A program made the translations under genes and the position numbers. Under the pieces are notes generated by a model. It saw only the letters and a program-made list of their open reading frames with translations. It searched no databases and was not told the origin of the DNA. Of a stretch of DNA of 64,000 nucleotides, positions 24,910 to 46,149 are shown one piece after another (the first letter of the stretch is position 1; every line of letters starts with the position of its first letter). Origin of the DNA: an uncultured Verrucomicrobiae bacterium (GTDB lineage Bacteria; Verrucomicrobiota; Verrucomicrobiia; Chthoniobacterales; UBA10450); assembly GCA_963726745.1 (NCBI GenBank), contig CAVSDR010000005.1, positions 96,001 through 160,000 of the forward strand. Reading direction: 5' to 3'.

Positions 24910-25090
24910 AAAAGATTACGCGACAGAAGAAATAAGATTGACGCCCGGCGGCCGTTTCTCTTTTCTCCCGCTCGGCGCTCGCTTGCTGAAGCCGCTGCCA
25001 AAGAGGCTTTTGGGCGCTCGCAGTCTTCGGATTTGCCGGTTGCAACAGGGCCTCTTGCCCTCGGATCTCAATCAATCGGACCAAATAAAA

Positions 25091-25786
25091 ATGCTTAAAA
25101 GAATCGTCGCAAACCTCATCGCGGTCACCGCGAGCCTGGCTCTGGCCGGGATCGTCTCAGCCCAAAATTTCACGGAAATCGGCGATGCCGGCCAAACTTT
25201 GGGCACCGCCCAGGCAACCGCGGCCAGCCCGGCGGTCGCAGGTATGCCTCTGGCCAGCATCACCGGATCACTCTTCTCGATCGGCGATGCGGACATCTTT
25301 GCCATCTACATCAACAGCCCGTCGACGTTCTCAGCGACCACGGTGAATGCGGTTACGACCACCGCCAACACCGACACGGCGCTGTTTCTTTTCGATTCCA
25401 CCGGCAAGGCGATCTACGCGAATGATGACGCCGCCGGCGGTCTCAGTGTTGGCTCCTCGCTCCCAGCGAACAATCCGCTCGGGCCGCAGGTCGTGGGCGT
25501 TTATTATCTCGCGATCAGCCTTTCGGGGAACGAGCCGGTGAATTTCGCGTCGCAGCTCATGTTCATGATGCCGACGACTTCCACCGACCTTCGCGGGCCA
25601 AATTCGCAGGCCACCGGCGGGCTCTTCGCCTTCGACGCGAATGGCGTCAACGCCACCGTGGGCGGGAATTACCGGATCGACCTCACCGGCGCGCAGACCT
25701 CGGCGGTGCCGGAACCGAGCACGGTCGCCCTGGCCGTCTTCGGCGCCCTCGGCTTGATCTCGCTGGTTAAAAAGCGCCGCGCCTAG
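25091..25786 (+). CDS. DVUA0089-like (PPC-like) protein with PEP-CTERM
   Basis: Signal peptide; E.GDAGQ, DADIFAI, DTALFLFDSTG..IYANDD, G.YYLAIS; VPEPST-TM-KKRRA. Confidence 0.85.
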   Translation: MLKRIVANLIAVTASLALAGIVSAQNFTEIGDAGQTLGTAQATAASPAVAGMPLASITGSLFSIGDADIFAIYINSPSTFSATTVNAVTTTANTDTALFLFDSTGKAIYANDDAAGGLSVGSSLPANNPLGPQVVGVYYLAISLSGNEPVNFASQLMFMMPTTSTDLRGPNSQATGGLFAFDANGVNATVGGNYRIDLTGAQTSAVPEPSTVALAVFGALGLISLVKKRRA

Positions 25787-25856
25787 ACCGGCTGGAATCA
25801 CCCTACTTATTTCGCGCCCGAACTTTCGTCGTCACTCACTCCGTCATCCAATAAAT

Positions 25857-28800
25857 ATGAAATTGAGCTCCCATCTGCGGCCTTTCCTCAAAGGCACCCT
25901 GTGCACTGCACTTGTCCTGGCTTCCGCAGCCAGCCTTCTCTACGCCAAGCCCGTCCCGTCGAATCTCGGTTACGGCCTGGATAAGCTGGTCGAAAGCAAA
26001 CTCGCCATCCAGCAGGCTGCAGCGCGCGGGCCTCGCGCCTTGGCCGCGGCCACGCGTTACAACGGCTACGCTACCGAAGAAGCGGCCAGCTACGCCGCAG
26101 AGGCGATCACCGAAGAATCCACCGGACGCGTCACGGTGGACATCACCCTGCGCGGGACGCGCAGCATGGACGACGTGACCGCGCAATTAGCCGCGCAGGT
26201 CCCTTCCTTTAGCGTCGTCGCCCGCGATGGCAGCTATCGCGGCGTCGGCATTATCGAGGCCTGGATCTCGGTCGAAGACGTCGCCACGGTGGCCAAGATG
26301 GAAGGCGTGCGCGCGGTCTTTCTCGCGCTCAAACCCCAGCTCGACAGCGTGATCGCGATCGATCCGCAATCCTACTCGCCCACGCGCATCGTGCCTGCGT
26401 TGCGCGAAGTGGCCCGCGCGACCAAGACGGTCGAGCCTTACGTCACGCCCGGCCAGGTCTTGAAGAAGATCGGCACCACCTTCGACCAAGGTGTCACCCA
26501 ACATCGGGTCGACAAAATCAACCAGCTCTATAACCCGAGCGCGCCGGTCAATTACGACGGCACTGGTATCTCCATCGGCGCGCTCTCCGATAGCTACAAT
26601 ACCCGCACGCTCGCACCGCATGCGGACACCGGGGTGGCGAACTTCGACCTCCCGGGCGCGGTCGGAAATCCGATCAACTCCCAGCCCGTCGTCGTCCTGA
26701 AGGACCAGGCCACGGCCGGGACCGACGAAGGTCGCGGTATGTTGGAAATCGTGCACAAGATGGCACCACGCGCCCGCCTGGCCTACGCCACCGGCGTGGA
26801 CGGCGAAGTCGCCTTTGCGAACTACGTGCGCGCCCTCGCCGGCTTGCCCGGTTTCACCTTCGATCCATCGATTCAGCAGGGCTTCAAGGCCGACGTGATC
26901 GTTGATGACATCAGCTACGGCGGGGAACCCTTTTACGGCGAAAGCATCATCGGCGGCGGCATCGACGACGTGGCCGCAGCCGGCGTCTCCTATTTCTCTT
27001 CCGCGGGCAACAACATCGGCACGAACGCCTATGAATCCTTCCTCCGGATCATCCCGGCAGACAGCAATGCGCTCGTGGGGACAAACATCAACCTCACCGG
27101 TGTGCCCACGAACCTCTACGCCGGCGGCTTCCATAACTTCAACCCGAACCCCGGCCAACAAGACATCGCCGCGCTTTGGAATATGCCAACCGGTTCGCCC
27201 GGCGCGACCGAGATGCAGTGGGACGATCCCTACGACATTCGCGACCCCATCTTGAACCAACCCGCAATCTACTCGAACAGCGGCACGATCGACAACACCA
27301 CCACGACGGTGAATTTCAACGACATCCCGGTCTTCAATCAAGGCGTCGGCTATGTGATCAACACCAAGGGCACCAGTGGCGACATCGATACGGTCGTGAT
27401 GTTGATCGACCCCGATGGAAACACAGTCGTGAACCAGGATACCGGCGTGGACGAAACGGTTTACTTCTACGCTCCCCGCAGCGGGCAATACCGGATCACG
27501 GTCGGCCGTTACTCTACCACAATCGGCAGCTTCACGATCACGATCAATACCACTCAGACCCCGGCGTCCGTCACGACCGACCTGAACCTGCTCGTCTTCC
27601 GCGCTGACACCGGGGCGTATCTCGGGACGAAGTCGCTTACGACCGACAACCTGGCGAACAACCGCCCAGTGGAACTTGGCAGCAGCAGCACGGTTAGCTC
27701 GCCTACGGGTCAAACCCAACTGCAGTTCGTGATCGCCCGGGCGAACAACCCCACCGCGCCGCAATTGCCCACCCGGGTGCGCATTTCCACCCGTGGAAAT
27801 GGCGCTGCGGGCATCGGACCGGCAGAGTATTTCTCCTATAACGCGACCACGACCAAAGGGCACGCCACTGCCAAGGGTGGCAATGGCGTCGCGGCTTACT
27901 CGCCCTTCCGCCCGAATGTGCCGGAAAGCTTCACCTCGCCCGGACCGGCCACGATCCTGTTCGACAAGAATGCCAACCGCCTCGCCGTACCGGACATCCG
28001 CCTGAATCCGACGGTGGCCGCAATCGACGCCGCGAACACGTCGTTCTTCGGCAGCGACACGAACCGGGACATCGATGTGAACCCGAACTTCTCCGGCACC
28101 AGTGCCGCGGCACCGCACGCAGCGGCGCTGGCTGGTCTGGTCTTGCAGGCGAAGGGCGGCTCGGGCTCGGTCACTCCCACGCAGATGCGCACCATGTTGC
28201 AGCGGAGCGCTTTCCCGCATGATCTCGATCCCTCTTATGCCTCAGGCACCGCGCGTGCGACCAATGGCGGCAAGATCACGATCACGATCAACAGTGACAA
28301 CAGCGCGAACGTAAACACCGGCCGGAACGACCCGAACTCGATCGCGGTCTCCTACGTGGGGCCGGGGTCGCTCGCGAGCCTGACCTTTAACCCGAGCGGC
28401 ACCGCGACCGACGGCGGCAACGTCACCGGGGGCAACAATGGCTACACCGATGACGCCGGGACCACCCCGCCGAACGGAACCATCACCTACTTCGCGAATT
28501 ACTTCCCGGGTCTGGTCTTCCTGCCGGCGACGAAGGGCTTCACTCTCGGCAACCTCACCGGGTTGACCGCGGGCGACATCACCGCTCCGACGAACGCTTC
28601 GCCTTACACCGGTTTCAGCAATCTCGCGCCGGCGCCGGCCAACGGCACCTCGCAGTTCTGGACCATGTCGCTCGGTTTCCCGACGGGGAATTTCACCGGC
28701 GGCAAAGTTCTGCGCTTCACCGTGGGTCGCGGCACCGCGCACGGCCCGCAGGTCTCGAATAGCACTGGGCCGACGGGCGGCAGTGTGCTCGACTTCCCGT

Positions 28801-28997
28801 TAGCCGATCTCTTTGGCGGCGGCGTCTTCATCCCGGAAGGCACGGTGGTGCAGGACGGCATGAAGTTTAGCGGCACGATCACCGGCGGCGGCGTCTTTGA
28901 AGGCAACATCCGCAACCGCATCGGCAGCGGCTACACCCCAGTCGACGGCTACGGAGTGATCAACATCGAGTCGGCCGTGAACCAGCCTCTGCCCTAA
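25857..28997 (+). CDS. Secreted subtilase-superfamily peptidase, S53-like (DEGRxM type) with inserted PPC domain
   Basis: IGALSDS, TDEGRGMLEIVH, VIVDDISY, YFSSAGN, FSGTSAAAPH, C-terminal GYGVINIESAV. Confidence 0.88.
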   Translation: MKLSSHLRPFLKGTLCTALVLASAASLLYAKPVPSNLGYGLDKLVESKLAIQQAAARGPRALAAATRYNGYATEEAASYAAEAITEESTGRVTVDITLRGTRSMDDVTAQLAAQVPSFSVVARDGSYRGVGIIEAWISVEDVATVAKMEGVRAVFLALKPQLDSVIAIDPQSYSPTRIVPALREVARATKTVEPYVTPGQVLKKIGTTFDQGVTQHRVDKINQLYNPSAPVNYDGTGISIGALSDSYNTRTLAPHADTGVANFDLPGAVGNPINSQPVVVLKDQATAGTDEGRGMLEIVHKMAPRARLAYATGVDGEVAFANYVRALAGLPGFTFDPSIQQGFKADVIVDDISYGGEPFYGESIIGGGIDDVAAAGVSYFSSAGNNIGTNAYESFLRIIPADSNALVGTNINLTGVPTNLYAGGFHNFNPNPGQQDIAALWNMPTGSPGATEMQWDDPYDIRDPILNQPAIYSNSGTIDNTTTTVNFNDIPVFNQGVGYVINTKGTSGDIDTVVMLIDPDGNTVVNQDTGVDETVYFYAPRSGQYRITVGRYSTTIGSFTITINTTQTPASVTTDLNLLVFRADTGAYLGTKSLTTDNLANNRPVELGSSSTVSSPTGQTQLQFVIARANNPTAPQLPTRVRISTRGNGAAGIGPAEYFSYNATTTKGHATAKGGNGVAAYSPFRPNVPESFTSPGPATILFDKNANRLAVPDIRLNPTVAAIDAANTSFFGSDTNRDIDVNPNFSGTSAAAPHAAALAGLVLQAKGGSGSVTPTQMRTMLQRSAFPHDLDPSYASGTARATNGGKITITINSDNSANVNTGRNDPNSIAVSYVGPGSLASLTFNPSGTATDGGNVTGGNNGYTDDAGTTPPNGTITYFANYFPGLVFLPATKGFTLGNLTGLTAGDITAPTNASPYTGFSNLAPAPANGTSQFWTMSLGFPTGNFTGGKVLRFTVGRGTAHGPQVSNSTGPTGGSVLDFPLADLFGGGVFIPEGTVVQDGMKFSGTITGGGVFEGNIRNRIGSGYTPVDGYGVINIESAVNQPLP

Positions 28998-29020
28998 CGA
29001 GCGGAGCAACGAGCGATCTT

Positions 29021-29060
29021 GCGCGGCAGGCCGGGAAACTGGCCTGCCGCGTTTGTTTTT
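29021..29060 (+). terminator. Rho-independent terminator
   Basis: GCGCGGCAGGCC / GGCCTGCCGCGT stem followed by TTGTTTTT. Confidence 0.8.
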
Positions 29061-29243
29061 AGACAGCAAGTTGTCGCCCGCGCGCACCCGCGGGAGAGGA
29101 CCGGCGCGACGCGAGGGAACTCGTTTCGAGAGGGCGCGAATAATGATTGACCGCCCCGATCTCAATCCGCAGGATCGCCGCTCTTCTGGCTCGCGCTGAG
29201 CCCTTTCCAACCCAACGATCCCACCCCGCCCGCATCCCCGTCT

Positions 29244-29945
29244 ATGGACTCACTCCGTTTCATCCGCCCGTTTCTTGGCCTCGCCAGCTGCCTGGCTCTC
29301 TCCGCCTCCGCGCTCCAGGCGCAGACCTACACTGAAACCGGCGACGCCGGTCAATCGCTCCCCAGCGCCCAGGCCACGGGCACGAGCAGCGGCAATCCCC
29401 TAACGACCATCTTCGGGACGCTGTCGAATGGCTCGGATGCCGACCTGTTCCTGATCATGATCACCTCGCCGACGATGTTCTCGGCCACGACGAACAATTC
29501 CCTGACGATCGCTTCGGGCCTGGATACGGCGCTCTTCCTTCTCAATAGTTCCGGCGCCGCGATCTACACGAATGACGACGCCAATGGCACCACGCTGCAA
29601 TCGACCTTGCCCGCTGGGAGCAGCTTCACCATGTCGCTCAGCCCGGGAATTTATTACCTCGGCATCAGCATTACCGGGAACGAGCCGGTTAACCTGAACA
29701 ACCAACTCCTGTTCGCCGGCTATCCCGGCGGCGATTCCACCGCCGTGCGCGGGCCGGCTGCCGGCATCAGCCCCCAGACGCTTTCCTCCTTCAACGGCGC
29801 GAATTCCTTTTCGCAATCCGGCGCCTATCGGATCGACCTGACCGCGACCGCCTCCGCCGTGCCGGAGCCCTCGGCCGTGGTCTTGAGCGTGGCCGGGATT
29901 CTCCTGCTCGCGGTCTTCCTGCGCCTGCGTCGTCAATCGGCCTAA
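29244..29945 (+). CDS. DVUA0089-like protein with PEP-CTERM (paralog of 25091..25786)
   Basis: ETGDAGQ, DADLFLI, DTALFLLNSSG..IYTNDD, GNEPVN, YRIDLT; VPEPS-TM-RLRRQSA. Confidence 0.85.
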   Translation: MDSLRFIRPFLGLASCLALSASALQAQTYTETGDAGQSLPSAQATGTSSGNPLTTIFGTLSNGSDADLFLIMITSPTMFSATTNNSLTIASGLDTALFLLNSSGAAIYTNDDANGTTLQSTLPAGSSFTMSLSPGIYYLGISITGNEPVNLNNQLLFAGYPGGDSTAVRGPAAGISPQTLSSFNGANSFSQSGAYRIDLTATASAVPEPSAVVLSVAGILLLAVFLRLRRQSA

Positions 29946-29966
29946 GTCCCTCACCTCCTCACTCAC

Positions 29967-32900
29967 ATGACATTTACCACTCCTTCCTTCCTTTGCTCCA
30001 CCCGGGTGGCCACCGCGATTCTGTGCGCTGGCTGGCTCGGCTACGCCGCCCCCGCTGGGGCCAAACCGGTGCCGGAAAATCTCGGCTACGGCATGGATAA
30101 ACTGGTCGAAAGCGACCTCGCGCTTAAAGCGGGCAGGAACCAGCGCGGCCTGCGCTTGTTCAACGGCTACGCCACCCAGGAAGCGGCTAACTACGCCGCG
30201 CGCGCCATCGCCTCAGAGGATGGCCGCTTCATGATCGACATCACACTCACCGGAAAAGTACCGGTCGAGAAATTGCAGGAGATGTTGCGCGCTAAATTCC
30301 CGTCGTTCGAAGTGACCGCGGTCGATCCGAGCTATCGCAAGGTTGGCATCATCGAAGGCTGGATCGCTGTCGAGGAAGCGGCCGCGCTGGCCGAGACCGC
30401 TGGTATCCGCGCCGTTTTCCTGGCTCTGCAACCGCAGTTGCACCGTGCCGCTGCGACCGGCGAGGCGATCCCTGCGCGTGGCGCGGTCAACGCCCCGCCA
30501 TCGACCAACCTGGCTTTGCTCGGGACGAAATTTCTCCAGGGCGTGACCCAACATCGCGTCGACAAAATCAGTCAGATCTACAACCCCTCCGCGCCGGTGA
30601 ACTACGACGGCACCGGGATCACCGTGGGCGTCATGTCGGATAGCTTCAACCGCCGGGCGGCCAACACCGCGACCAGCCCGAACTACCAGACCAACGTCAA
30701 CAACTACGACCTGCCGGGCCACCCGAGTAACCCGATCAACACCAACCCGATCATCGTCCTTGAGGACACCGTCGAGGCCAACTCCGACGAAGGCCGCGGG
30801 ATGTGCGAGATCGTTTACAAGATGGCGCCAAAATCGAAGATCGGTTTTGCCACCGCTTTCACCGGCGAAGTCGGCTTTGCCAACAACATCCGCGCGCTCT
30901 CCGGCAAGTTCCCCTCGGTGCCGAACACGCTGCCTGATTTCAAGGCCGACGTGATCGTGGACGACGTGAGCTACGGCGGCGAGCCCGTCTTTGCCGATGG
31001 CGGCGTGGTCATGAACGGCGTCGACGACGTCGCGGCCGTGGGCGTTTCCTACTTCTCTTCGGCGGCGAATTCCTACGGCGTCTCGGTTTACAATTCCGAC
31101 CTGCGGATGGTCGCGAATGGCAGCGGCAACACGGCCGCGACCAATGCCGCGCTCGTCGGGACCAACATCGACCTCTCCGGCGTGCCGACGAATCTCTACC
31201 AAGGTGGCTTCCACAATTTCAACCCGACCGGCGGACTCGACGTGGCCTGCCTTTGGAACATCGGCACCGCTGCCGGCATCGCGACCGAAATGCAGTGGGA
31301 CGACCCCTACGACACCTCCACGCCGGTGGTCAATGAACCCCCGATCTACACCAACAGCGGCACGATCTCCGGCGCCACGCCGGTGACCTTTACCGACATT
31401 CCGAATCTCAGCGCCGGCACGAAATACATCATCACCGAGACAGCCACCGGCGGCGGATTGGATGGCATCGTCTCGATCATCGACGACGCCACCGGGACGG
31501 TGATTGTCGACCAGGACACCGGCACCGACGAGGTGGTGACCTTCTTCCCCCCGACGACGGCCAAATACAACATCTCCGTGCGTCGTTACGGAACGACCAC
31601 CGGGACGTTTGACCTCAAGATCAACACCGCCAGCGGTTCGCCCTCGCTCTCGACCGATCTGAACCTGCTCGTCTTCCGTGCCGACACTGGCGCCTACATT
31701 GGGTCCAGCTCGCTCACGAGCAACAACTACGCGAACAACCGCCCGGTCGAGCTCGGCACGGTCGTTCGCCCCACCGGCCAGACTCAGGTGCAGTTTGTGA
31801 TCGCTCGCTCGAGCAACCCGATCGGCCCGCGGGCCGCGACCCGGGTGCGTTGCGGGACCGATGCGAACAGCAACTCGAGCAATGCCCCGGCGGAATATTT
31901 TGACTACAACTCGGCGGTGACCAAGGGCCACTCGATCGCGGCCGGCTGCAACGGCGTCGCGGCTTACGATGTCTTCCGGCCGAATGTTCCGCAGAGCTTC
32001 ACCTCGGGCGGGCCGGCGTTGATCTTCTTCGATCGGAATCAGAACCTGCTGTCCGCTCCCGAAGTGCGTCTTCAGCCGCGAATGGCGGCGGCCAACGGCT
32101 CGAACAGCACTTGGACCGGCAGCGACTCCGCGAATGACATCGACACCGGGAACGGCCAGTTCTACGGCACCAGCGCGGCAGCGCCGCACGCGGCCGCAGT
32201 CGCCGCGCTCGTCCTCCAGGCCAAGGGCGGCCCGGGTTCGGTCACGCCGTTGCAGATGCGCACGATGTTGCAAAACACCGCCTTCCCGCATGATCTCGAT
32301 CCCTACCGCGCGAGCGGTGTGGCCCGCGCGACGAATGGCGGCAAAGTCACCGTGACCGTCCGGAGCGACACCACCGCGGTGCAGAATCGCGGCCGCAACG
32401 ATCCCGATTCCTTCTCCATCAGCTACGTGGGGCCGAGTGCGATCACGTCGTTTAAATTCAATCCGAGCGGCCTTGCGTCCGAAGGCGGCGGCGTGACCAG
32501 CGGGCAGAACGGCGTCGACGCGAGCAATAACTATTTCTCGACCGTGACCCCGGGGCTGTATTTCACCACCGCCACGGCCGGGGGAGCGTTTGCTTTCACG
32601 CCGGGCGCCAGCACCGGTCTTCTCGCGTCGGATGCCACGGCGGCCCTGAGCAATCCAGCGCCGGCACCGGCCACGGTCACGGCCAGCCAGGGATTCACCC
32701 TCACGCTGTACTTTCGTCGCGGATAGCTTCACCGGCGGCGATGTCTTTCGCTTCACCATCGGCCGCGCCCTGGCGCGCGGACCGAACGTAGCCGCCACCG
32801 GCGGCGCGGTCCTGGCGCATTACAGCGCGGACCTCTTCGGCGGCGGCGTGCTCATCCCAGAGGGGACGATCATCTCTGATGGCATGCGCTTTAGCGGCAC

Positions 32901-33021
32901 GCTGGCGGATGGCTCCACCTTCGACGGTGTGATCCGCAATCGCATCGGGGCCGGCTTCTCGCAGCTCGATGGCTTCGGCTTTGTGAATGCGGAAGCCGCG
33001 GTCTACGCGCCTGTGCCCTAA
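29967..33021 (+). CDS. Secreted S53-like subtilase (paralog of 25857..28997); frameshift near 32712
   Basis: VGVMSDS, SDEGRGMCEIVY, FYGTSAAAPH. After the frame change it continues FTGGDVFRFTIGR...ADLFGGGV...GFGFVNAEAAVYAPVP*, matching the paralog. Confidence 0.85.
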
Positions 33022-33045
33022 AGAATCGGTCCAGGCAGAAATCGG

Positions 33046-33366: not shown

Positions 33367-36300
33367 ATGATTAAAACAAAAACCCTTCTGCCCTTGGCTG
33401 CCCTCGCAACAGCCGCCCTGGGTTCATTGTCCTTCGCCCTGGCGCAGGCACCTTCCGCTGCCCAGCCTGCCGCCGCCGCTCCCGTGGCAAGCACGGAGGC
33501 CTCCTCCGAAGGGGAGAACTTGCGGGCTTATTTCGTCGAGATGACGGCGCCCGCCGCCGCCGCCACTTTCTCTTCAAACTACCAACGCTATGCCGCGGAA
33601 TCGCGTCTCCTGCGCGGCAACGCCGCCGCCCGTGCGCAAGCCGCGACCGAGCGGGCTGCCTCCGAGGCGACCCAGCAGGCTTGGACGAACGAAAACGCGC
33701 AGCGGGCCTTGCTGAATAATCTTAGCGCTCCGGGTCTCGGTGTGAAGGTCCTCTATCGCGCGCAGACCGCTCTCAATGGCATCGCGGTGATGGCTCGCCC
33801 TGATCAGGTCGCGGCCCTCGAGAAACTTCCCGGCGTGCAGCGGGTCATCGAAGTGGTCCCGATGAAAATGGATGCGGTCAGCAGCCTCAACTTTGTGGGC
33901 ACGCGCAACTTCTGGAACACTTCAGGAATCAACGCCCACGGCGAAGGCGTCGGCGTAGGGGTGATCGATACCGGCATCGACTTCGTCCACACCGGCAACG
34001 CCGGCCCCGGCGGCAGCGGCTATGCGACCGGCGTCACCTCGGTTGGCGGCGGCACCCCCGCGACGACTTTCCCGACTTCGAAAGTGGTCTGGGGTTACGA
34101 CCTCGTGGGCGATGCCTACTCCGGCACAAACTCTCCCGTGCCCGACCCGAACCCGATGGACACGAACGGTCACGGCACCGCTTGCGCGAGCTTGATCGCC
34201 GGTTTCGGCGTGAACAGCGACGGCACCACCTACACCGGTTCCTACACTTCGGTCGTTCCCGATATTTCGACCCTTCGGATTTCGCCCGGCTTCGCCCCGC
34301 AGGCTTCCCTCTTCGCCTTCCGCGTCTTCGGCACCAGCGGCTCGACCAACGTCAGCTCGCAGGCGATCGACATCGCGACCGCGCTCCGTCTCTGGCAGCT
34401 CTCGCCTGATGGCACGGCGCTCCCGCCAGCCATCAGCAACCTGAGCCCCGCGGCGGTGGCACCTCCGCGCACCCCTGTGCTTTCGGTGATCAACATGTCC
34501 CTCGGCTCCGGCAACGGCCAGGCCTCGGCTTACAACGACGGCACCGTGGCGGTGCAGAATGCCGCCGCCGCCGGTCTCTCGATGATCATCTCGGCGGGTA
34601 ATTCCTATGACAACATCTACGTGGTCGGCAGCCCGAGTGTCGCCACCGGCTCCATTTCCGTAGCCGCGACCTTTAACGACAAGCAGCCTGGCGCCACGGC
34701 CAACGCGCCGGCCAATGGCAGCCAGCCGCCGCTGAACGTCGCCATGCAGATCGGCGCCGCCGCCGCCGCCATCACCAGCGCCCCGAACGACCTGCCCCCG
34801 ACCGCGGCGCGCTACGCCAATCCTCCTCTGGGCGACTTCCAGCACACTGCCGGCACCAGCCTCGCGGCCACGCTGACCGCTGCGCTCAAAAATGACGCAG
34901 GTGAACCTGTGACCGACGCGAGCGGCAATCCGATTGCCGGCGTTTCGAATCCTTATCCGGGCAAGGTCGTCCTGATCGATCGTGGCGTGGTCGGTTTCCA
35001 TCAGAAAGCTCTCGCCGCTGCCCGTGCGGGCGCTGCCGCGGTGGTCATCGTGAACAACCGTCCCGGTTCTGCCCCCGGCATGGCCGCAGCCGCCGGTTTC
35101 CCCGTGCTCTCGATTCCAGTCGTGAGCGTAACCGACGTGGATGGCGCTCTGATGAGCAATACCGGCGTGGCTAACGTCCCGCCCGCGCGTCCAGGCTTGA
35201 CTATCGGCCTGCAGCCGGAAAACCCGGCCAATGCCGATGAAGTTACCGGCTATTCCTCCCGCGGTCCGCGGCGGCTGGACAACCGGCTGAAGCCCGACAT
35301 GGCGGCGCCGGCCGAAAACGTGACCGTGAATGTCGCCACCACCGGTAACGGCGTGGGCAGCTTCAACGGCACCTCCTCCGCCGCTCCCCACGTCTCCGGC
35401 GCGATGACGTTGCTCCGGCAGTTGACCAATTCCGGCGGCACCACGCCGGCTTGGACGATGGAAGAGCTCAAGGCGTTGATTATGAACTCGGCCACGGGCA
35501 ATCCGCTCCTCGGTGGCGCCAATGGCACCATCCGCTACGGCCTCTCCCGCGTGGGCGTGGGTCGGTTGAACCTGGCCCCGGCCGGCGGCATGCCGACCGC
35601 AGTGGCGATGAGCACCGATGCCGACTTCCCGGTGAGCATTTCTTTCGGCTCCGTGGAAGTGCCGGTCGCGGAGACGGTCACGATCGACAAGACCTTCAAG
35701 GTGGTCGACAAGGGCCCGGTCCCGCTGTCGCAGAAAGGGGTCGCCTCCATGCGCACCTTTAACCTCTCATTCGACACCGTGAACGCGGTCCCCGGAGTCT
35801 CGTTCTCCTTCCCGGACGGCCCGACCATCGACGTCCCGGCTGGTGGCTCCGCCACCGCCCGCGTCCGCATTACCGCGGTCGGCAGCCTGCTGCGCCATGT
35901 GCGTGAAGCCGCGACTACGGCCACGCAGGTGTTTGCCCTCGGCCCTCCGGCCACGCTTCTGCCGCGCACCTTCCTCACGGAAGCAGGCGGCAACATCATC
36001 CTCACGGAATCGGGTGGAGCGGGGAATCAAATGCGCCTCTCGGTGCATGCCTTGCCGCGGCCGAACTCGAGCTTGAGCGTCACGCCGGCCTCGTTGGTGC
36101 TGCCGGCGACTTCCGCCTCGCAAGTCCTGACCTTTGCGGGCAACGGAATCGATACCGGCAACAACCTCGACACCGTGGCCAACTCGACCGCAGACATCAA
36201 ATCGCACGCCAAGGCGTTCGAGTTGCAATACGACAAGCCATCGGTGCAAAGCGATCCGCTCTTCAAGACGGCCGAGATCACGAAGGTGGGTGTGACCAGC

Positions 36301-37476
36301 GACTTTGCGCGCCGCACCCTTCCGTTCGATACCGCGACCACAAACAACCAGAGTGCGGTGGTGGTCTTCGCGGTCGCGACCGCGGCGGACTACAACACCC
36401 CGAGCAGCTCGGGGCCGGACATTCAGATCTTGGTCGACCGGAATGGGGACTTCGTGGAAGACATCACCGTGCGCAGCTTTGCCTGGAACGATCCCAGCCA
36501 GGGCACGGGCACGTTTGGCTCGAACATGTTCCTCAGCGTCACCAACCCCTTCGGGTCGGGCACGCTCACGACGACCGGATTCTTTACCAACATCCTCGTC
36601 GGCCGCGCGATGAACACGTTGAACAACAACACCATGATGTTGCCGGTTAATGCCCAGCGCCTCGGCCTCACGGCCGCGGCGTCGCGCATCAATTATAAGG
36701 TGAAAAGTTCGTTCTACTTTGGCACCTACAACTCGGAAACCCCGTGGATGACCTACGACCTGGCGAAGCCGGGCGTGGACGCCTCCGTGGCGGTGGCAAA
36801 CGAGCCCTTCGTCTTGAATGCCATCGGCGGCAGCAGCACTTCGGCCACGATCAACACCCCGCAATACAACGGGAACCGGTCGCTCGGCGTGATGATGCTC
36901 TATCCGTGGAATGCGCCGGCTAATCGCGTGCAAACCGTCCGCGCTCCGGCGCAGTTGCTCGAGGTGGTCTCGCGCCGTCCGGGTGCAGGCACGCCGGAAC
37001 GCGTCTTTTCACTCGCGAACCCTGTGGGCGTGGAGAGCCGTCGAGGGGCGAACTTCAACACCAGCGTGAACCCGAACACCGGCGACTACACGGTAGCTTT
37101 CCGGTTCAACAGCCCGGTTACGCAGGGCACATGCACCATCCAATCGGGTGTGGCCACCGTGGGAGCGATCACGTTTAACGGGAACGACATGATCGTGCCG
37201 CTTACCGGGGTGAACGACAAGCAACTCATCACCTTCAGCCTCACTGGCCTGGTCGACAACCAGGGCAATCCGCTGCCTAACTTGCAGCCGCAACTTGGGT
37301 TCCTTGTGGGCGACATCAATGGCGACGGCACGGTCGACGTCGGCGATTCCATTCTCGTCCGGAATGACGCCGGGAAAACCGCCGCGCAAGCGCCGGCTAG
37401 CGACGTAAACGGTGACGGCACCGTGAACTCTGGCGACGCCATCATCGTGCGCGGTGCCTCGGGGAACGCGTTCTAA
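33367..37476 (+). CDS. Secreted S8A subtilase (Vpr-like: I9 propeptide, PA domain) with C-terminal Ig-like module and dockerin
   Basis: GVIDTG, NGHGT, SAGN, YSSRGP..LKPD, NGTSSAAPHVSG; PA-like GKVVLIDRG; duplicated Ca-binding loops GDINGDGTVDVGD and SDVNGDGTVNSGD. Confidence 0.9.
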   Translation: MIKTKTLLPLAALATAALGSLSFALAQAPSAAQPAAAAPVASTEASSEGENLRAYFVEMTAPAAAATFSSNYQRYAAESRLLRGNAAARAQAATERAASEATQQAWTNENAQRALLNNLSAPGLGVKVLYRAQTALNGIAVMARPDQVAALEKLPGVQRVIEVVPMKMDAVSSLNFVGTRNFWNTSGINAHGEGVGVGVIDTGIDFVHTGNAGPGGSGYATGVTSVGGGTPATTFPTSKVVWGYDLVGDAYSGTNSPVPDPNPMDTNGHGTACASLIAGFGVNSDGTTYTGSYTSVVPDISTLRISPGFAPQASLFAFRVFGTSGSTNVSSQAIDIATALRLWQLSPDGTALPPAISNLSPAAVAPPRTPVLSVINMSLGSGNGQASAYNDGTVAVQNAAAAGLSMIISAGNSYDNIYVVGSPSVATGSISVAATFNDKQPGATANAPANGSQPPLNVAMQIGAAAAAITSAPNDLPPTAARYANPPLGDFQHTAGTSLAATLTAALKNDAGEPVTDASGNPIAGVSNPYPGKVVLIDRGVVGFHQKALAAARAGAAAVVIVNNRPGSAPGMAAAAGFPVLSIPVVSVTDVDGALMSNTGVANVPPARPGLTIGLQPENPANADEVTGYSSRGPRRLDNRLKPDMAAPAENVTVNVATTGNGVGSFNGTSSAAPHVSGAMTLLRQLTNSGGTTPAWTMEELKALIMNSATGNPLLGGANGTIRYGLSRVGVGRLNLAPAGGMPTAVAMSTDADFPVSISFGSVEVPVAETVTIDKTFKVVDKGPVPLSQKGVASMRTFNLSFDTVNAVPGVSFSFPDGPTIDVPAGGSATARVRITAVGSLLRHVREAATTATQVFALGPPATLLPRTFLTEAGGNIILTESGGAGNQMRLSVHALPRPNSSLSVTPASLVLPATSASQVLTFAGNGIDTGNNLDTVANSTADIKSHAKAFELQYDKPSVQSDPLFKTAEITKVGVTSDFARRTLPFDTATTNNQSAVVVFAVATAADYNTPSSSGPDIQILVDRNGDFVEDITVRSFAWNDPSQGTGTFGSNMFLSVTNPFGSGTLTTTGFFTNILVGRAMNTLNNNTMMLPVNAQRLGLTAAASRINYKVKSSFYFGTYNSETPWMTYDLAKPGVDASVAVANEPFVLNAIGGSSTSATINTPQYNGNRSLGVMMLYPWNAPANRVQTVRAPAQLLEVVSRRPGAGTPERVFSLANPVGVESRRGANFNTSVNPNTGDYTVAFRFNSPVTQGTCTIQSGVATVGAITFNGNDMIVPLTGVNDKQLITFSLTGLVDNQGNPLPNLQPQLGFLVGDINGDGTVDVGDSILVRNDAGKTAAQAPASDVNGDGTVNSGDAIIVRGASGNAF

Positions 37477-37502
37477 GCGGCGCCCAAAACGCAGTCTAAC
37501 GA

Positions 37503-37538
37503 GCGGCTCCAGCAGCGTTGCTGGAGCCGTTTTCGTTT
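37503..37538 (+). terminator. Rho-independent terminator
   Basis: CGGCTCCAGCA / TGCTGGAGCCG stem followed by TTTTCGTTT. Confidence 0.8.
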
Positions 37539-37686
37539 CTGAGGGGGGGGCGCTGGGGGTGCAAAGACGTCGATGACGAAAATATAATGACGGTTTCGCT
37601 GGGTCTTTATCGGGAAGACCAGTAACTAGTGCTCCGGCTGGCGCGTCACGCCACCATAAAAGCCCAACCTAGCAATACCTACGTCT

Positions 37687-40600
37687 ATGATTCCACGCTT
37701 CCGTCCTCTTCTCTCGCTGCGCCTCGTTGCGGCGGGGATTGTTTTCACTCTATCCGCAGGACTGGCTTCGGCCGTTCCGTGGGCACCAGGCGAACGCGAA
37801 GGGGATGAATTCCACGAAACCCCGGCGGAGAAGTTTGTCGAAAACCTCCCGGCAAGTGACGCGCTCCTCCCCGCGCCGCAGCCCAAGAGCGTGCCGGCTA
37901 TTTCTCGAGCGGTTCGCAAGACCAACCTCGTTAATTTGGACTGGACGGCGATCGGGCCGTTCCCGATTCCGAATGGCCAGACGATTGGACGCCAGGATCC
38001 GGTAAGCGGACGTGCGACTGCCATCGCGATCCATCCCACGAATGAAAACATCATGTATTTGGGCACGGCCCAAGGCGGTCTTTATCGGACGCTCGACGGC
38101 GGCGCGACCTGGACGCAATTGATGGACGCCGCCACCGCCGGCCCTGTGGGCACGCCTCTGGCCATCGGCGCGGTCACGATCGATCCCACCGACCCGACCA
38201 CGGTTATCGTCGGCACCGGCGAAGGAAACCTTTCCGCCGACAGTTATTTTGGCAGCGGCCTTTACACCGTCACCGGAGCGGATGGCTCCAACCCCGTGGT
38301 GAACGGCCCCTTCAACGCGTCCGCCGGTGAAACGGGCGTGGCCGCTGGCACCGATCTCTTTACGGGCCGCTCGATCGTGGCCATCGCGGTGGATCCGACG
38401 AACCACAACAACGTCTTCATCTCCACTTCTTCGGGTGTCGGCGGTATCCGGGGCACGGCCTATAGCGTCCTGCCTCGCCGCGGTCTCTATCGCTCCACGA
38501 ATCTCTTTTCTGCCTCACCTACCTGGACTCGTTTACAAATCACGGGCACGACGAGCACCAACACCATCTCCACCTCGCTGGTGATGGATCCGGCGAACGC
38601 GAATAACCTCGTGGTGGCCTATTACAGCCAGGCCGGGACCGACCCGACGGGTATTTACCGCACGACGAACGCGCTCGACCCTGTGCCCACCTTCACGCAG
38701 TCGCTCGCGCTGCCGAACTTCATCAACTGCAAGCTCGCCATCCAGCGCGCGACAGACGGCACCGTGACGGTCTACGCCACGGCCGACCAAAGCTCGGGCA
38801 CGCTCTACAAGTCGGTCAATGGCGGCGCGACCTTTGTGAACAAGCCGGGCGCCAATGGTTTCGCCGGCGGTCAGGGCTTCTACGATCTCTCCGTGGGCGT
38901 GGACCCAAACAACGCCAACAACGTGAGCGTGGGCGGCCAGGCGGGCCAAAACACCTTCAAGCGTTCCCAAGACGGAGCGAACACTTTCACTGTAGACACA
39001 GCTGGCACCTCCATCACTGTCGGGTTGCACGCGGACGTTCACGCGATCCGCTACGCTCCTTCGAACGGAAACGTGATCTATCACGCGAATGACGGTGGTG
39101 TTTGGCGCTCCGGGGACGGCGGCAGCAACTGGGTTTCGAAGAACACCGCTGGCCTCAGCGCGACGCAGTTTTCCGATCTCGCGATTCACCCGACGGACGC
39201 GAAATTTTCCATCGGCGGCACGCAAGACAACGGCACCGAGCAGCTCCGCGCAGACGGCACTTTCACCCGCGTCGACTTTGGCGACGGCGGCTTCTCCCTG
39301 ATCGACCAGAACGCCACCGACACGACCAACGTGGTGCAGTATCACACCTACTATAACCAGACGGCGAATCTGATCGGCACTGGTCGCATTCTCACCAACG
39401 CTTGCGCTTCTGAAGGCCAATGGAGCTTCCATGGCATTTACGGCGGCGCGGTTGACCCCACGCCGTATTGCGACGGCAGCACCGATACTTTTAACGGTAT
39501 CGCCCTCACGGACGCGACCAACTTTTACGCGCCGCAGGTCCTCGGGCCGGGCAATCCGAACACCTGGTATTTCGGCACCGATAAGCTCTACCGCTCGATC
39601 AATCGTGCGGATACGGCCACGGTCGCGAGCCAATTGCTCGACCAGACCACAGCAGGCACACCGCCGACGGGCACCCCGGTGAGCGCGATCGCGATCTCGC
39701 CGCAAGACGATAACGTTCGCCTGGTCGGCTTGAACAACGGCAAGATTTTCGCGACCACCATCGGCAGCCCGACGATGCTGCAGATCGCCGGCACCGGTGC
39801 GACCAATGGACCCACGAACACGCCAGCGGTGGCGGTGGGGCGCATCGCGATCGATCCGAACAACAAGAATGTCGCCTATTTCGCCTTCGGCGGCTACGGC
39901 ACCCCGGCCGCTCCGCTCTCGCATGTCTACAAAGTGACTAACCTCGACGCGTTGAGCGCCACCCCTCCCGGCGTGCTCGTCTTCACGGCCGTCTCTTCAG
40001 GCCTCCCGGATGTCCCGGCAAACGCCCTCGCGATTGATCCCCAGAGCGGGTCGAATAGCGCCAGTTCGAGCGACATTTATGTCGGCACCGACCTCGGCGT
40101 TTACAAAACCACCAACGGTGGCACCGGTTGGACCCGCTACGGCACCAGCATGCCGCGCGTGGCAGTCTTCGGATTGCAGATCCAGAATCCGAATCGCCTC
40201 ATCCGCGCAGCGACCCATGGTCGCGGCATGTATGACGCCTCCATCATCGCGTCGTCCCTGCAGGCGCCCGTGCTCTCCAGCGTGGTTTCGCGAAAGACCC
40301 ACGGCTCTGCCGGCACCTTCGACATCAACATGCCGCTTACCGGTCCTGCCGGCATCGAGCCGCGCAAGGGCGCGCAGGGCTTGAACACGCCGGGAGACTT
40401 CACCATCGTCTGCCGCTTCACCAATGCCATCTCCAGCCTGCAAGCTCAGGTGACCACGGGCACCGGCACGGTGAACAGCATCGTCTACCAAGGGAACGAT
40501 GTGATCGTAAACCTGACCGGCGTCACCGACGTCCAGGTCCTCACCTTAACCCTGAGCAATGTCACCGATTCCAACGGCAACACCTTGCTCTCTGCCTCGG

Positions 40601-40797
40601 TCAAGCTTGGGTTCAATATGGGAGATACCACCGGCAATGGAGTCGTCGACGTCGGCGACGCCGCGCAAACGAGAAATAATTCTGGTATTGCGACAACCAT
40701 CTCGAACTTCCGCACCGATGTGAATGTCGACGGCACGATCAACGGCGGCGACGTATTGATCGTCCGGCAGAAATCAGGCAACAGCATTATGCCTTGA
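37687..40797 (+). CDS. Secreted BNR/Asp-box beta-propeller protein with C-terminal Ig-like module and dockerin
   Basis: Repeats GLYRTLDGGATW, LYKSVNGGATF, VWRSGDGGSNW, VYKTTNGGTGW; ATHGRG; tail GDTTGNGVVDVGD...TDVNVDGTINGGD. Confidence 0.85.
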   Translation: MIPRFRPLLSLRLVAAGIVFTLSAGLASAVPWAPGEREGDEFHETPAEKFVENLPASDALLPAPQPKSVPAISRAVRKTNLVNLDWTAIGPFPIPNGQTIGRQDPVSGRATAIAIHPTNENIMYLGTAQGGLYRTLDGGATWTQLMDAATAGPVGTPLAIGAVTIDPTDPTTVIVGTGEGNLSADSYFGSGLYTVTGADGSNPVVNGPFNASAGETGVAAGTDLFTGRSIVAIAVDPTNHNNVFISTSSGVGGIRGTAYSVLPRRGLYRSTNLFSASPTWTRLQITGTTSTNTISTSLVMDPANANNLVVAYYSQAGTDPTGIYRTTNALDPVPTFTQSLALPNFINCKLAIQRATDGTVTVYATADQSSGTLYKSVNGGATFVNKPGANGFAGGQGFYDLSVGVDPNNANNVSVGGQAGQNTFKRSQDGANTFTVDTAGTSITVGLHADVHAIRYAPSNGNVIYHANDGGVWRSGDGGSNWVSKNTAGLSATQFSDLAIHPTDAKFSIGGTQDNGTEQLRADGTFTRVDFGDGGFSLIDQNATDTTNVVQYHTYYNQTANLIGTGRILTNACASEGQWSFHGIYGGAVDPTPYCDGSTDTFNGIALTDATNFYAPQVLGPGNPNTWYFGTDKLYRSINRADTATVASQLLDQTTAGTPPTGTPVSAIAISPQDDNVRLVGLNNGKIFATTIGSPTMLQIAGTGATNGPTNTPAVAVGRIAIDPNNKNVAYFAFGGYGTPAAPLSHVYKVTNLDALSATPPGVLVFTAVSSGLPDVPANALAIDPQSGSNSASSSDIYVGTDLGVYKTTNGGTGWTRYGTSMPRVAVFGLQIQNPNRLIRAATHGRGMYDASIIASSLQAPVLSSVVSRKTHGSAGTFDINMPLTGPAGIEPRKGAQGLNTPGDFTIVCRFTNAISSLQAQVTTGTGTVNSIVYQGNDVIVNLTGVTDVQVLTLTLSNVTDSNGNTLLSASVKLGFNMGDTTGNGVVDVGDAAQTRNNSGIATTISNFRTDVNVDGTINGGDVLIVRQKSGNSIMP

Positions 40798-40816
40798 TTT
40801 CGCCCAAATAAAGTCG

Positions 40817-40865
40817 AACCGGGTCGAGCCCGAAAAATATTATAAAATCGGGCTCGACATCGGTT
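40817..40865. promoter_or_regulatory. Intergenic inverted repeat with AT-rich loop
   Basis: GTCGAGCCCGA (40823-33), 14-nt loop AAAATATTATAAAA, TCGGGCTCGAC (40848-58); outer AACCG/CGGTT; no U-tract. Confidence 0.6.
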
Positions 40866-40913
40866 TAGCGAAATCCTAGAAAACTCGAAATCACTGCAAC
40901 CCCGCACGCACCC

Positions 40914-41591
40914 ATGAAAAAAACTCTCCTTCTTTCCGCTCTCGCTTTCGCGAGCGTCTGTCTCACTGCCGTATCCAGCTTCGCGCAAACCGCGTCGTTC
41001 GTTTATACCGGAGTACCCAGCGGGCCTTTGGCTCCGGGATCGTCCTTCACCATCGGCATCAGTGTGGTCTTCGCCGCCGGCGGCACCGTGACGGACGTCA
41101 ACGGCCTATCTTATTGGTTCGCCCAAACTAACCCAACGAGCAGCTATCCCTTCTCGATCACAAATCGCAATGTTGGCGCGAGTGCGTTCAATCAGCTCCA
41201 GACCCCTGGGTTGACTTATCCGCAGATCATCGATCCGATCAATCGCAACTCGAATGGCACAACCAACCAAACGGATTTGGGCGCTCTCTCGCAGGACCCT
41301 CAGGGCACTCCTGGCAATCGTAATGGCACCTTCTTCGTCGGGAATTTGACCTTCCAAATCTCCGGCACCGCCGCTGCGACAACTTACACCCTTGGGAACA
41401 CCAGCACCGGGACTCCTCCTGGGGTGGGTGGCCGCGTTTCCGTTGTGACCGACAGCAACGGCAACACTGCGCCGATCGCGTTCTCGCCTTTCAACGTCAC
41501 GGTCGTGCCAGAGCCGAGCACCTACGCGCTGCTCGCGTTTGCCGGCCTCGGCCTGGTTGTGGTGGCCTATCGCCGCCGCGCGAACGCCTAA
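40914..41591 (+). CDS. PEP-CTERM protein with putative cohesin-like beta-sandwich
   Basis: Signal peptide; LAPGSSFTIGISV..VNGLSYWF..GNLTFQISGTAAATTYTL..VTDSNG..FNVTV; VPEPSTYALL-TM-RRRANA. The cohesin call rests on pattern only. Confidence 0.75.
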   Translation: MKKTLLLSALAFASVCLTAVSSFAQTASFVYTGVPSGPLAPGSSFTIGISVVFAAGGTVTDVNGLSYWFAQTNPTSSYPFSITNRNVGASAFNQLQTPGLTYPQIIDPINRNSNGTTNQTDLGALSQDPQGTPGNRNGTFFVGNLTFQISGTAAATTYTLGNTSTGTPPGVGGRVSVVTDSNGNTAPIAFSPFNVTVVPEPSTYALLAFAGLGLVVVAYRRRANA

Positions 41592-44632: not shown

Positions 44633-46149
44633 ATGAACGAAGAATCACAGAATCAGTCCGAGGGCGCGAACCAAGTCCGCGCCGGCCCGTCGCCGCCGGC
44701 CTTCCCGCCGCGGCGCGCGTCCCCGCCGTGTCGCTGGCAATGCCGAGCGTCCTTCCGAAAACGTCGATGAACGCCGCGCCGCCGAGATGACCGCCGACCG
44801 CACCCGCGAGCAGCGCGAGCAGCGCGAGGGCGGGAGCCACGATTCTTCCGAGCCCGCGAATCGCGAAGGCGAAGGGCAAAGCTCCGCGCCTCCGCAGGGC
44901 GACCGCGAATTCCGCGAGCGCGACCGTGGCGGCGAGCGAAGCGATCACGAGGACCGTGATCGTCCGCGGGACCGAGAGCGCGATCGCTCCGAGCAACCGC
45001 ACGGCGGTGGCCAGGGGAACAACAACGGCCAGGACCTGCAGCGCGAGCCGGAGTTTGGCGAAGGCATCATCGAGATTTCCGGGAAAGGCTTTGGCTTCCT
45101 GCGCGACCCCAAGCGCAACTTCGTCCAGACGCCGCAGGACATTTTCGTCACACCGGAGATAGTGCGCCGTTTTAACCTGCGCGACGGCATGTGGGTCCAG
45201 GGTGAGACGCGCCGCGGCAATCGCGGGCCGCAGCTCATGCGCCTGAACAAGATCAACGACGACGAGCCGACGAAGTATCAGGAACTTCGCCCGTTCGAGG
45301 AGCTGACCACGATCAATCCGAACAAGCGGATCAAGCTCGAGACCGTGCCCGACCGCTTCACTACGCGCATCATGGACTTGATGACGCCGCTCGGCATGGG
45401 CCAGCGCGGGATCATTGTCGCCCCGCCGCGCACCGGCAAGACCACCCTCCTGCATCACATCGCCGATGCCGTGACCAAAAACCATCCGGAGATGAAATTG
45501 ATCATCTTGCTGGTTGATGAACGTCCCGAGGAAGTGACCGATTTCCGCCGCTCGTGCCCAGGCGCCGAGATCATGGCCAGCTCGAACGACAGCGACATCA
45601 AAAGCCACACGCGCATCGCCCAGCTCGCGATCGAGCGCGCCAAGCGCATGGTCGAGGCCGGCAAACACGTCTTCATTCTGCTCGATTCCATCACCCGCAC
45701 CGCGCGCGCGTTTAACAACGCCACCGGCGGCGGCGGTCGCACCATGAGCGGCGGCATCGACGCCCGCGCGATGGAAATCCCGCGAAAGATTTTCGCCGCC
45801 GCCCGCAATACCGAAGAAGCGGGTTCACTCACGATTGTCGCGACTGCGCTTGATCGAAACCGGCAGCCGCATGGACGAGCTCATTTTCCAAGAGTTCAAA
45901 GGCACCGGGAACATGGAGCTGGTGCTCGATCGCAAGATCAGCGATCAGCGCATTTACCCGGCAGTCGATATTTTCCTCTCCGGCACCCGTCGCGAAGAGC
46001 TGCTCCTGGAAGCCTGGGAGCTGGAGAAGATCAACCTGATTCGCCGCGGCCTCGCCGGTCACAAACCGGAGGAAGCAATCCAGCGCCTGCTCATGTTCGT
46101 GAAGAAATTCCCCACGAATACGCAGATGCTGAAAGAGATCCCGGGTTAA
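44633..46149 (+). CDS. rho: Transcription termination factor Rho (frameshifts near 44665 and 45851)
   Basis: GFGFLR, GMGQRGIIVAPPRTGKT, LVDERPEEVTD, LDSITR, GSLTIVATAL then frame change to IETGSRMDELIFQEFKGTGNMEL, SGTRREELL. The 5' start is inferred. Confidence 0.93.

Follow-up and report, generated by a model that had tools for sequence, protein, structure and literature searches.

The 64,000-nt stretch analysed here (the window) covers positions 96,001 to 160,000 of the forward strand of contig CAVSDR010000005.1 (assembly GCA_963726745.1), from an uncultured bacterium of the Chthoniobacterales (Verrucomicrobiota) whose genome of 3.4 Mb is 94.7% complete and is labelled G000 in our comparisons. 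Three plus-strand genes in this window encode a subtilase, a BNR propeller protein and a small PEP-CTERM protein, hereafter the anchor, which we consider a candidate cohesin partner for the dockerin-containing tails of the two larger proteins. Named homologues of the locus proteins come from Chthoniobacterales, Ca. Udaeobacter and Verrucomicrobiota. The open reading frames (ORFs) that a first-pass annotation of the bare sequence had placed at 33367..37476 (1369 aa), 37687..40797 (1036 aa) and 40914..41591 (225 aa) are correct in coordinates and strand. Its statement that the two large proteins end in dockerins and lack a membrane anchor also holds: Dockerin_1 scores over the Pfam cut-off in both, and both chains terminate just past the dockerin, with no hydrophobic segment. 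The features of the locus are:

33367..37476, + strand: subtilase (S8) with a signal-peptide-like start, I9 propeptide, PA domain and C-terminal X-dockerin tail; presumed cargo (Pfam, triad motifs)
36961..37308, + strand: immunoglobulin (Ig)-like X module of the subtilase tail, start approximate (alignment; fold taken from a paralogous tail)
37309..37473, + strand: subtilase dockerin, two 12-residue Ca-loop repeats with a helix after each; G11 and R17 in both
37501..37540, + strand: terminator-like hairpin and T-rich tail, 14 pairs (8 G-C), stem 37501-37532, between the subtilase and propeller genes (consensus match)
37687..40797, + strand: BNR/Asp-box (Vps10-like) propeller protein with C-terminal X-dockerin tail; presumed cargo (Pfam, NCBIfam)
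40264..40617, + strand: Ig-like X module of the propeller protein (tail residues 1-118), outside Pfam/NCBIfam families (model, structural matches)
40618..40794, + strand: propeller-protein dockerin (Pfam, tail model)
40914..40985, + strand: signal-peptide-like N-terminus of the anchor (aa 1-24), with a model helix at 3-16 and a nearly invariant Q25 (sequence)
40986..41507, + strand: predicted cohesin-fold domain of the anchor (aa 25-198), single copy in the genome (model and profile searches)
41505..41588, + strand: PEP-CTERM sorting signal with VPEP motif, hydrophobic helix and basic tail (Pfam, NCBIfam, model)

Pfam matches in the subtilase are Peptidase_S8 (E 3e-34), PA, Inhibitor_I9 and Dockerin_1 at residues 1315-1361 (E 8.5e-8, over cut-off), and the triad motifs are complete (D201, H269, S670). 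The propeller protein matches Sortilin-Vps10 (under cut-off), Dockerin_1 at 979-1028 (E 1.5e-5, over cut-off) and the Asp-box three times, with one sub-cut-off NCBIfam match labelled glycosylhydrolase. The N-termini of all three proteins are signal-peptide-like, as judged by eye.

The predicted anchor fold and the X-dockerin tail

The sole Pfam/NCBIfam match in the anchor is PEP-CTERM at residues 198-222, over cut-off (also TIGR02595). The four strand motifs that the first-pass annotation had read as a cohesin-like pattern are present in the anchor sequence. A model built from 120 homologues (predicted local distance difference test score, pLDDT, 90.5) has the topology of a cohesin, an elongated beta-sandwich of about 140 residues, and cohesins top both structure searches made with this model, in line with the cohesin-type sandwich proposed earlier. 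The best Foldseek match is the cohesin 2vo8 (E 2.5e-6), and in a wide search of 48,161 representative chains ranks 1 to 16 are all cohesins (Z 11.5 to 8.8); at Z 11.5, 135-138 residues (138/144 at best) align with a root-mean-square deviation of 3.0-3.1. A sequence search of the domain against the PDB gave no useful match. The anchor domain is predicted to have a cohesin fold and to represent a sequence family outside Pfam and NCBIfam.

This family comprises 692 clusters at 50% identity (E<=0.001). A PEP-CTERM-like end is found in 110/146 new family representatives, and PEP-CTERM lies directly behind 84 of the 101 cohesin domains read; other members have a different C-terminal domain, or a fusion to the tail, in its place. 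The genome of the window has four exosortase and three secretin matches, and the anchor has the make-up of an exosortase substrate, with PEP motif, transmembrane helix, basic tail and, by eye, an N-terminal signal peptide. Family cohesins L041, L143 and L147 (from genomes G210, G301 and G282) and P0296 end not in PEP-CTERM but in a C-terminal domain of about 72 residues. A tyrosine-arginine motif was read near the end of this domain in L041 and P0296, and L143 and L147, which cluster with L041, carry an extension of equal length; it is perhaps another verrucomicrobial sorting or partner domain. Outside the family, at L134 (G049:C109:3164-5894), the gene directly behind a tail gene encodes a divergent cohesin-like protein whose acidic repeat resembles calcium-binding ones and whose C-terminal domain is another one than PEP-CTERM.

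Both large ORFs end in one unit of about 175 aa, which consists of the Ig-like X module and, as its last third, the dockerin. The first-pass annotation recognised two dockerin-bearing clients; both do carry the tail, but carriers number about 30 and are spread over the genome, and the Ig-like module of about 115 aa before the dockerin had been overlooked. A tail profile matches 31 ORFs in the genome, 30 with a dockerin and one a split-off N-terminal piece, and PF00404 by itself gives 25 matches. The tail model is compact (pLDDT 96.5; predicted template modelling score, pTM, 0.91), with the Ig-like sandwich at residues 1-118 and dockerin helices at 130-138 and 161-169, and predicts a rigid X-dockerin unit. 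The best structural matches of the X module are Ig-like (3bc9, Z 8.7; CopC, Z 8.3); when the whole tail was used in a wide fold search, Ig-like domains filled the listing and dockerins were absent among the matches listed. Compared with PDB sequences, the propeller dockerin gave seven matches at E<=0.01, and all seven are dockerin-bearing chains or constructs, including Doc0917 and the C. perfringens 2jnk/2ozn chain. The layout is type I-like: there are two repeats of 22 residues, both made up of a 12-residue D/N loop and a helix, and PF00404 is over cut-off in both proteins. Across the 30 dockerins of this genome, Ca-ligand positions are D or N in 96% of cases, and the presumed recognition residues are duplicated in both halves (G11 in 57/60 repeats, R17 in 57/60).

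Among the 29 of 31 tail ORFs scanned with Pfam there are one S8 peptidase, one M12B metallopeptidase, one InhA-like MAM domain and several propellers (BNR, PD40, DUF5122, lactonase); most have no catalytic Pfam match, and no glycoside hydrolase Pfam family occurs in any of the 29. Several of the short tail ORFs start without a signal peptide. They are probably pieces of frameshifted genes, as frameshifts also affect rho and a neighbouring subtilase of the window (see below), and the gene count is therefore given as 'about 30'. Seven tail-bearing ORFs lie within 25 kb at G000:C3:744541-769001, with two unrelated PEP-CTERM genes about 3-4 kb off. Elsewhere, first-look tail candidates number 80-95 per genome (23 per genome scored) in G242, G260, G276, G289 and G334, which suggests much larger cargo sets, and in family f12 (L135 in G013, L141 in G024) the X-dockerin is embedded in proteins of great length (the longest open frames about 6,700 aa), with further domains behind it.

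This cargo bears on the label 'cellulosome-like' that the first-pass annotation had used. A true complex of that kind would have multi-cohesin scaffoldins elsewhere in the genome and many enzymes for polysaccharide breakdown. It could draw on the tail-cohesin fusions of relatives described below, which resemble adaptor scaffoldins and could chain, and on the 94.7% completeness of the genome. However, three profiles find one cohesin-family domain in the genome (still more divergent cohesins may lie beyond profile reach), and PF00963 finds nothing in this genome or in five others. Two matched stretches occur in just 2 of the best 150 representatives, neither of which has tandem cohesins on reading, and the cargo scanned is free of glycoside hydrolase families. 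Neither a multi-cohesin scaffoldin nor dockerin-bearing cellulases or hemicellulases were detected in the genome scans; we reject a cellulosome as extremely improbable and, with one cohesin per anchor, regard the label as overstated.

Co-occurrence, gene order and recognition residues

Tail and cohesin domain were tallied in 151 family genomes and in a class sample of 201 genomes. Among the family genomes, 59 have both, 0 a cohesin only, 44 a tail only and 48 neither (Fisher p 7e-14, overstated by kinship), with the tail present in 103/151. The tally includes the unpublished G332 and G346, both tail-only, and reads 59/0/42/48 without them. In the class sample, 6 genomes have the cohesin domain, and each of them is among the 18 that are tail-positive. 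An alignment of the full-length anchor had matched 127/201 of these genomes, mostly via the PEP-CTERM tail, and was rejected in favour of the domain-only rerun (6/201).

For gene order, 101 distinct cohesin domains were read, 97 of them with at least 1 kb upstream; contig-end hits and hits of fewer than 100 profile columns were omitted. In 49/97 cases a same-strand tail ends no more than 900 nt upstream of the domain. The other PEP-CTERM-like ORFs of this genome lie that close to a tail in 0/28 cases, the nearest at 1221 nt (a regex set with some false positives). Tail-then-cohesin cassettes occur three times in 20 kb in both G269 and G301, and twice in G282. The first-pass annotation had left two points to be checked: an exosortase gene, which this genome has in its four matches, and a recurrence of the gene order in relatives, which these 49 domains and the tandem cassettes provide. 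Tail and cohesin are also fused in one chain, in either order, in 5/146 representatives and at two loci. In G143 a tail gene precedes one for a PEP-CTERM protein, which was considered and discarded as not of the anchor family (hhalign probability 0.8%).

Dockerin positions 10, 11, 17, 18 and 22 are those that we take to be specificity determinants in cellulosomal systems. In 43 cohesin-adjacent dockerins, the symmetry between the two repeats is high at positions 9, 10, 11, 13, 17 and 20 (kappa 0.63-0.96; 0.72 at 11 and 0.96 at 17) and low at 2, 4, 6, 8, 15, 16, 19 and 22 (kappa <=0.06); positions 9, 11 and 17 were picked after this result had been viewed. Because both repeats keep identical recognition residues, we infer that the dockerin could bind in two orientations.

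In the cohesin tree, the clade holding the anchor is supported at 100/98 (89 in a larger quick tree). Position 17 is R in 77/82 repeats from five genomes with only clade cohesins (60 from G000; 20/22 without G000) and in 1/80 repeats from genomes with other cohesins; one dockerin was unparsed in this tally, and the tails taken from other genomes are the top matches to this genome's tail, a bias toward R. The contrast recurs inside genus g1 (G000 and G285 vs G303, G295 and G322) and inside g133 (G246 vs G224). Within the single genome G269, clade cohesins adjoin G11/R17 dockerins, and the other cohesin and five distant tails go with S11 and Q17 or E17. This suggests that dockerin class varies with cohesin subtype.

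The recognition positions are uniform in the eight cohesin-bearing genomes compared, with an identity of 0.65-1.00 at positions 11+17 and a repeat symmetry of 0.75-1.00; the values for the genome of the window are 0.90 (filler 0.42) and 0.93, with Ca ligands at 0.96. No cohesin was found in G203, G270 and G320; in these three genomes positions 11+17 have a within-genome identity of 0.19-0.25 (filler 0.35-0.37) and repeat agreement is 0.10-0.36, with Ca ligands kept at 0.90-0.91. Since co-occurrence, gene order, fusions, subtype matching and this decay without a cohesin all fit such a pairing, tail and cohesin modules appear to be cognate partners, and we consider it very likely, from these sequence patterns, that the cohesin binds the dockerin tails.

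A number of results weigh against this interpretation. Kinship among the genomes means that the counts exaggerate independence. A cohesin was missing at first from 44/103 tail-positive genomes; three later gained one (G295, G216 and a frameshifted copy in G253), and about 41 remain. When five cohesin-negative genomes were rechecked near their tail genes with a broader profile (3.5-kb loci), two proved to have a cohesin directly downstream, intact in G216 (hhalign probability 94%) and frameshifted in G253, and the other three did not. With the divergent G216 cohesin as query, nothing was found in five cohesin-negative genomes, in a run without a positive control. Some of the absences were thus oversights, and others may be genuine. 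In family f12 the tail is present in 10/11 genomes and the cohesin in 0/11, the tail lying inside long proteins in the two loci read. R17 also occurs with non-clade cohesins in G132 (6/6 repeats, tallied apart; pooled 7/86), G216 and G310, and two clade cohesins adjoin K17 dockerins. The decay comparison comprises three genomes only, two of them from one genus. In a mirror-tree analysis of the 43 adjacent pairs, cohesin distance correlates with the recognition positions (rho 0.54) no better than with the remaining positions of the dockerin (0.53), though better than with the X module encoded by that gene (rho 0.34). As for the fold, the first non-cohesin in the structure search of the anchor, the adhesin domain 9ifr, scores Z 8.8, and PF00963 has no match in the anchor and just one among its 120 homologues (E 0.044). 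The lack of a PF00963 match keeps the domain from being assigned to PF00963 or to cohesin types I-III but does not bar the fold; according to the passages available, ruminococcal cohesins likewise escape cohesin profiles.

Some of these results would also be expected if the two modules did not bind, the X-dockerin being a self-sufficient Ca-binding or sorting tail and the anchor a co-regulated, adhesin-like matrix protein that shares the cohesin beta-sandwich. Such an arrangement would accommodate the tail-positive genomes (about 41/103) and family f12 without a cohesin match, the Ca ligands retained by tails of cohesin-negative genomes, a mirror-tree signal not specific to recognition positions and a non-cohesin fold at Z 8.8; moreover, dockerins and cohesins that lie outside cellulosomes and have no known function are described as widespread in the passages available. 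It leaves unexplained, however, the 0/151 cohesin-only genomes, an adjacency confined to the anchor family, the repeated cassettes and fusions, the subtype-matched dockerins and a uniformity of recognition residues that is lost where no cohesin is found. We regard it as very unlikely and retain binding between cohesin and tail in what follows.

Transcription and neighbouring genes

Terminator-like sites number 11, compared with 8.5 +/- 3.1 in shuffles, and the hairpin at 37501-37532 is the longest. This hairpin of 14 pairs suggests that the subtilase gene is transcribed separately from the propeller and anchor genes, and on its account a three-gene operon was rejected as unproven. The propeller and anchor genes, 116 nt apart, plausibly form one transcript. 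Between them, at 40823-40858, lies an inverted repeat with perfectly matched 11-bp arms around a spacer of 14 nt, all A or T. It gave no plus-strand terminator call and may stabilise the RNA as a hairpin or bind a regulator.

Upstream, at 24722-33022, a small PEP-CTERM gene followed by a large S8-family gene occurs twice (24722-25786 with 25857-28997, and 29244-29945 with 29967-33022). The two small genes are alike by eye, neither S8-family gene has a dockerin tail, and the pairs may represent another anchor-cargo or adaptor-protease pairing. The listed frame of the second S8-like gene stops at 32726, and similarity to the 25857 paralogue runs on in another frame to a stop near 33022; the frame shifts near 32715, either genuinely or through an assembly error. 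The rho gene (44787-46149) is split by a frameshift near 45850, with its C-terminal part in ORF 45835-46149, which suggests indel errors in the assembly.

Proposed role and comparison with known systems

We propose that a single-cohesin PEP-CTERM anchor, processed by an exosortase, probably holds about 30 dockerin-tagged, otherwise unrelated and probably secreted proteins in the cell envelope, through binding that presumably depends on calcium. By analogy with known routes, Sec would export all three proteins of the locus, and an exosortase would remove the PEP-CTERM helix and anchor the cohesin in the envelope. Ca-loaded dockerins would then dock on the cohesin in either of two orientations, with the X module stabilising the dockerin and spacing the cargo. 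Judging by strand alternation, the docking face would be the one with the conserved cohesin residues G64, S66, W68, D121, G123, S176 and D180. Outer-membrane passage, possibly via a type II system, could lead to outer-surface display, by analogy with the GlyGly-CTERM and MYXO-CTERM proteins that need type II secretion. As each anchor has a single cohesin and the clients number about 30, display would be one-to-one, and the surface repertoire would be set by expression of the tagged cargo.

Display on the outer surface seems less sure than binding. All of the evidence for pairing fits equally well if the bound pair serves another job, namely periplasmic or inner-membrane holding, carriage through the outer membrane, or release with the cargo tied into an extracellular matrix. 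The partners would presumably first meet in the periplasm, and 84 of 101 family domains, not all, have a PEP-CTERM directly behind. In the passages available, PEP-CTERM proteins are mostly non-enzymatic and linked to flocs and extracellular polymeric substances (EPS), and type II secretion is documented as required only for GlyGly-CTERM and MYXO-CTERM proteins. On the other side, the cargo types (subtilase, M12B metallopeptidase, large propellers) suit extracellular substrates, and related sorting signals end at the cell surface according to the same passages; neither point is decisive. We consider a non-display role unlikely and holding in the envelope, with possible display, the better account.

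A broader and bolder extension, less likely than not, is a lineage-wide address label, in which anchorless cargo would clip to the cohesin in the periplasm and ride across the outer membrane, so that one adaptor might export and display tens of proteins and a cell might have several mutually exclusive socket-plug classes. If true, Chthoniobacterales would have a protein-targeting route of their own and a natural library of orthogonal cohesin-dockerin pairs. The envelope-anchoring proposal itself would give a concrete role to one PEP-CTERM protein family, where most such families have none, and would account for orphan dockerin tails in Chthoniobacterales relatives, whose partner profile searches miss. 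Subtype-matched pairs are candidate orthogonal tags for designer enzyme complexes and for Gram-negative surface display, and both modules are small, which makes the claim testable without culturing the organism.

Searches of full-text literature found no description of a dockerin or cohesin with PEP-CTERM (most subscription journals lie outside the coverage, and domain tables for anaerobic methanotrophic (ANME) archaea could list archaeosortase-sorted cohesins). They returned cohesin and exosortase together in separate contexts only, nothing on a dockerin with Udaeobacter and passing mentions with Chthoniobacter. The coupling of cohesin-dockerin anchoring to exosortase sorting is a well-supported candidate, and it would join two mechanisms not found together in the literature searched. 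With the PEP-CTERM/exosortase system it shares the tripartite signal and the exosortases; the passages on that system do not mention an adaptor through which the signal would serve enzymes that lack it. Further comparison literature, available in part, includes PMC11557425, PMC12484212 and the bioRxiv preprints 10.1101/2023.06.07.544157 and 10.1101/2023.11.21.568195.

Cohesin-dockerin complexes have already been proposed for diderms and archaea. In the passages available, these are the planctosome of freshwater Planctomycetes, also of the Planctomycetes-Verrucomicrobia-Chlamydiae (PVC) superphylum, with a dockerin-tagged M12B peptidase (PMC6461901), the complex of Ca. Stygibacter with a dockerin-tagged S8 (PMC8542988), and ANME archaea with their many cohesin and dockerin domains (PMC9012536, PMC5244752). 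Like the present system they are genome-inferred and non-cellulolytic, with dockerin-tagged peptidases; they differ in having large anchors (a lamin-tail domain, or a C-terminal domain on a multi-cohesin scaffoldin) and Pfam-detectable cohesins, and the same passages make no mention of a PEP-CTERM-anchored cohesin or of Chthoniobacterales.

Type II XDoc modules, such as that of C. thermocellum CipA (2b59_B, 5k39_B), likewise have an Ig-like module packed before a C-terminal dockerin (weak Foldseek E 0.03-0.05). The resemblance is one of layout; the X module described here is closer to other Ig-like domains than to XDoc, and it tags cargo, whereas CipA is a scaffoldin. OlpA and OlpC of C. thermocellum each combine a single cohesin with S-layer homology (SLH) domains. 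These two (3ul4, 4dh2) and ScaE of R. flavefaciens (2zf9) resemble the anchor in that one cohesin with a surface anchor captures dockerin-bearing proteins, and their cohesins match it structurally (Z 10.3, 10.6 and 8.0, respectively; sequence identity 8-13%). The passages available describe them as monoderm systems held by SLH domains or sortase, whereas the anchor has a PEP-CTERM in a diderm, with no scaffoldin or cellulase detected in the genome. The best fold matches are the non-cellulosomal cohesins of C. perfringens (2vo8 and 2w1n, both Z 11.5) and Archaeoglobus fulgidus (2xdh, Z 9.4), together with CohA2-Doc0917 of C. acetobutylicum (6kgc, Z 11.5). The C. perfringens cohesin is a module of a large glycoside hydrolase, whereas the cohesin proposed here would be a stand-alone, sorted adaptor with about 30 clients.

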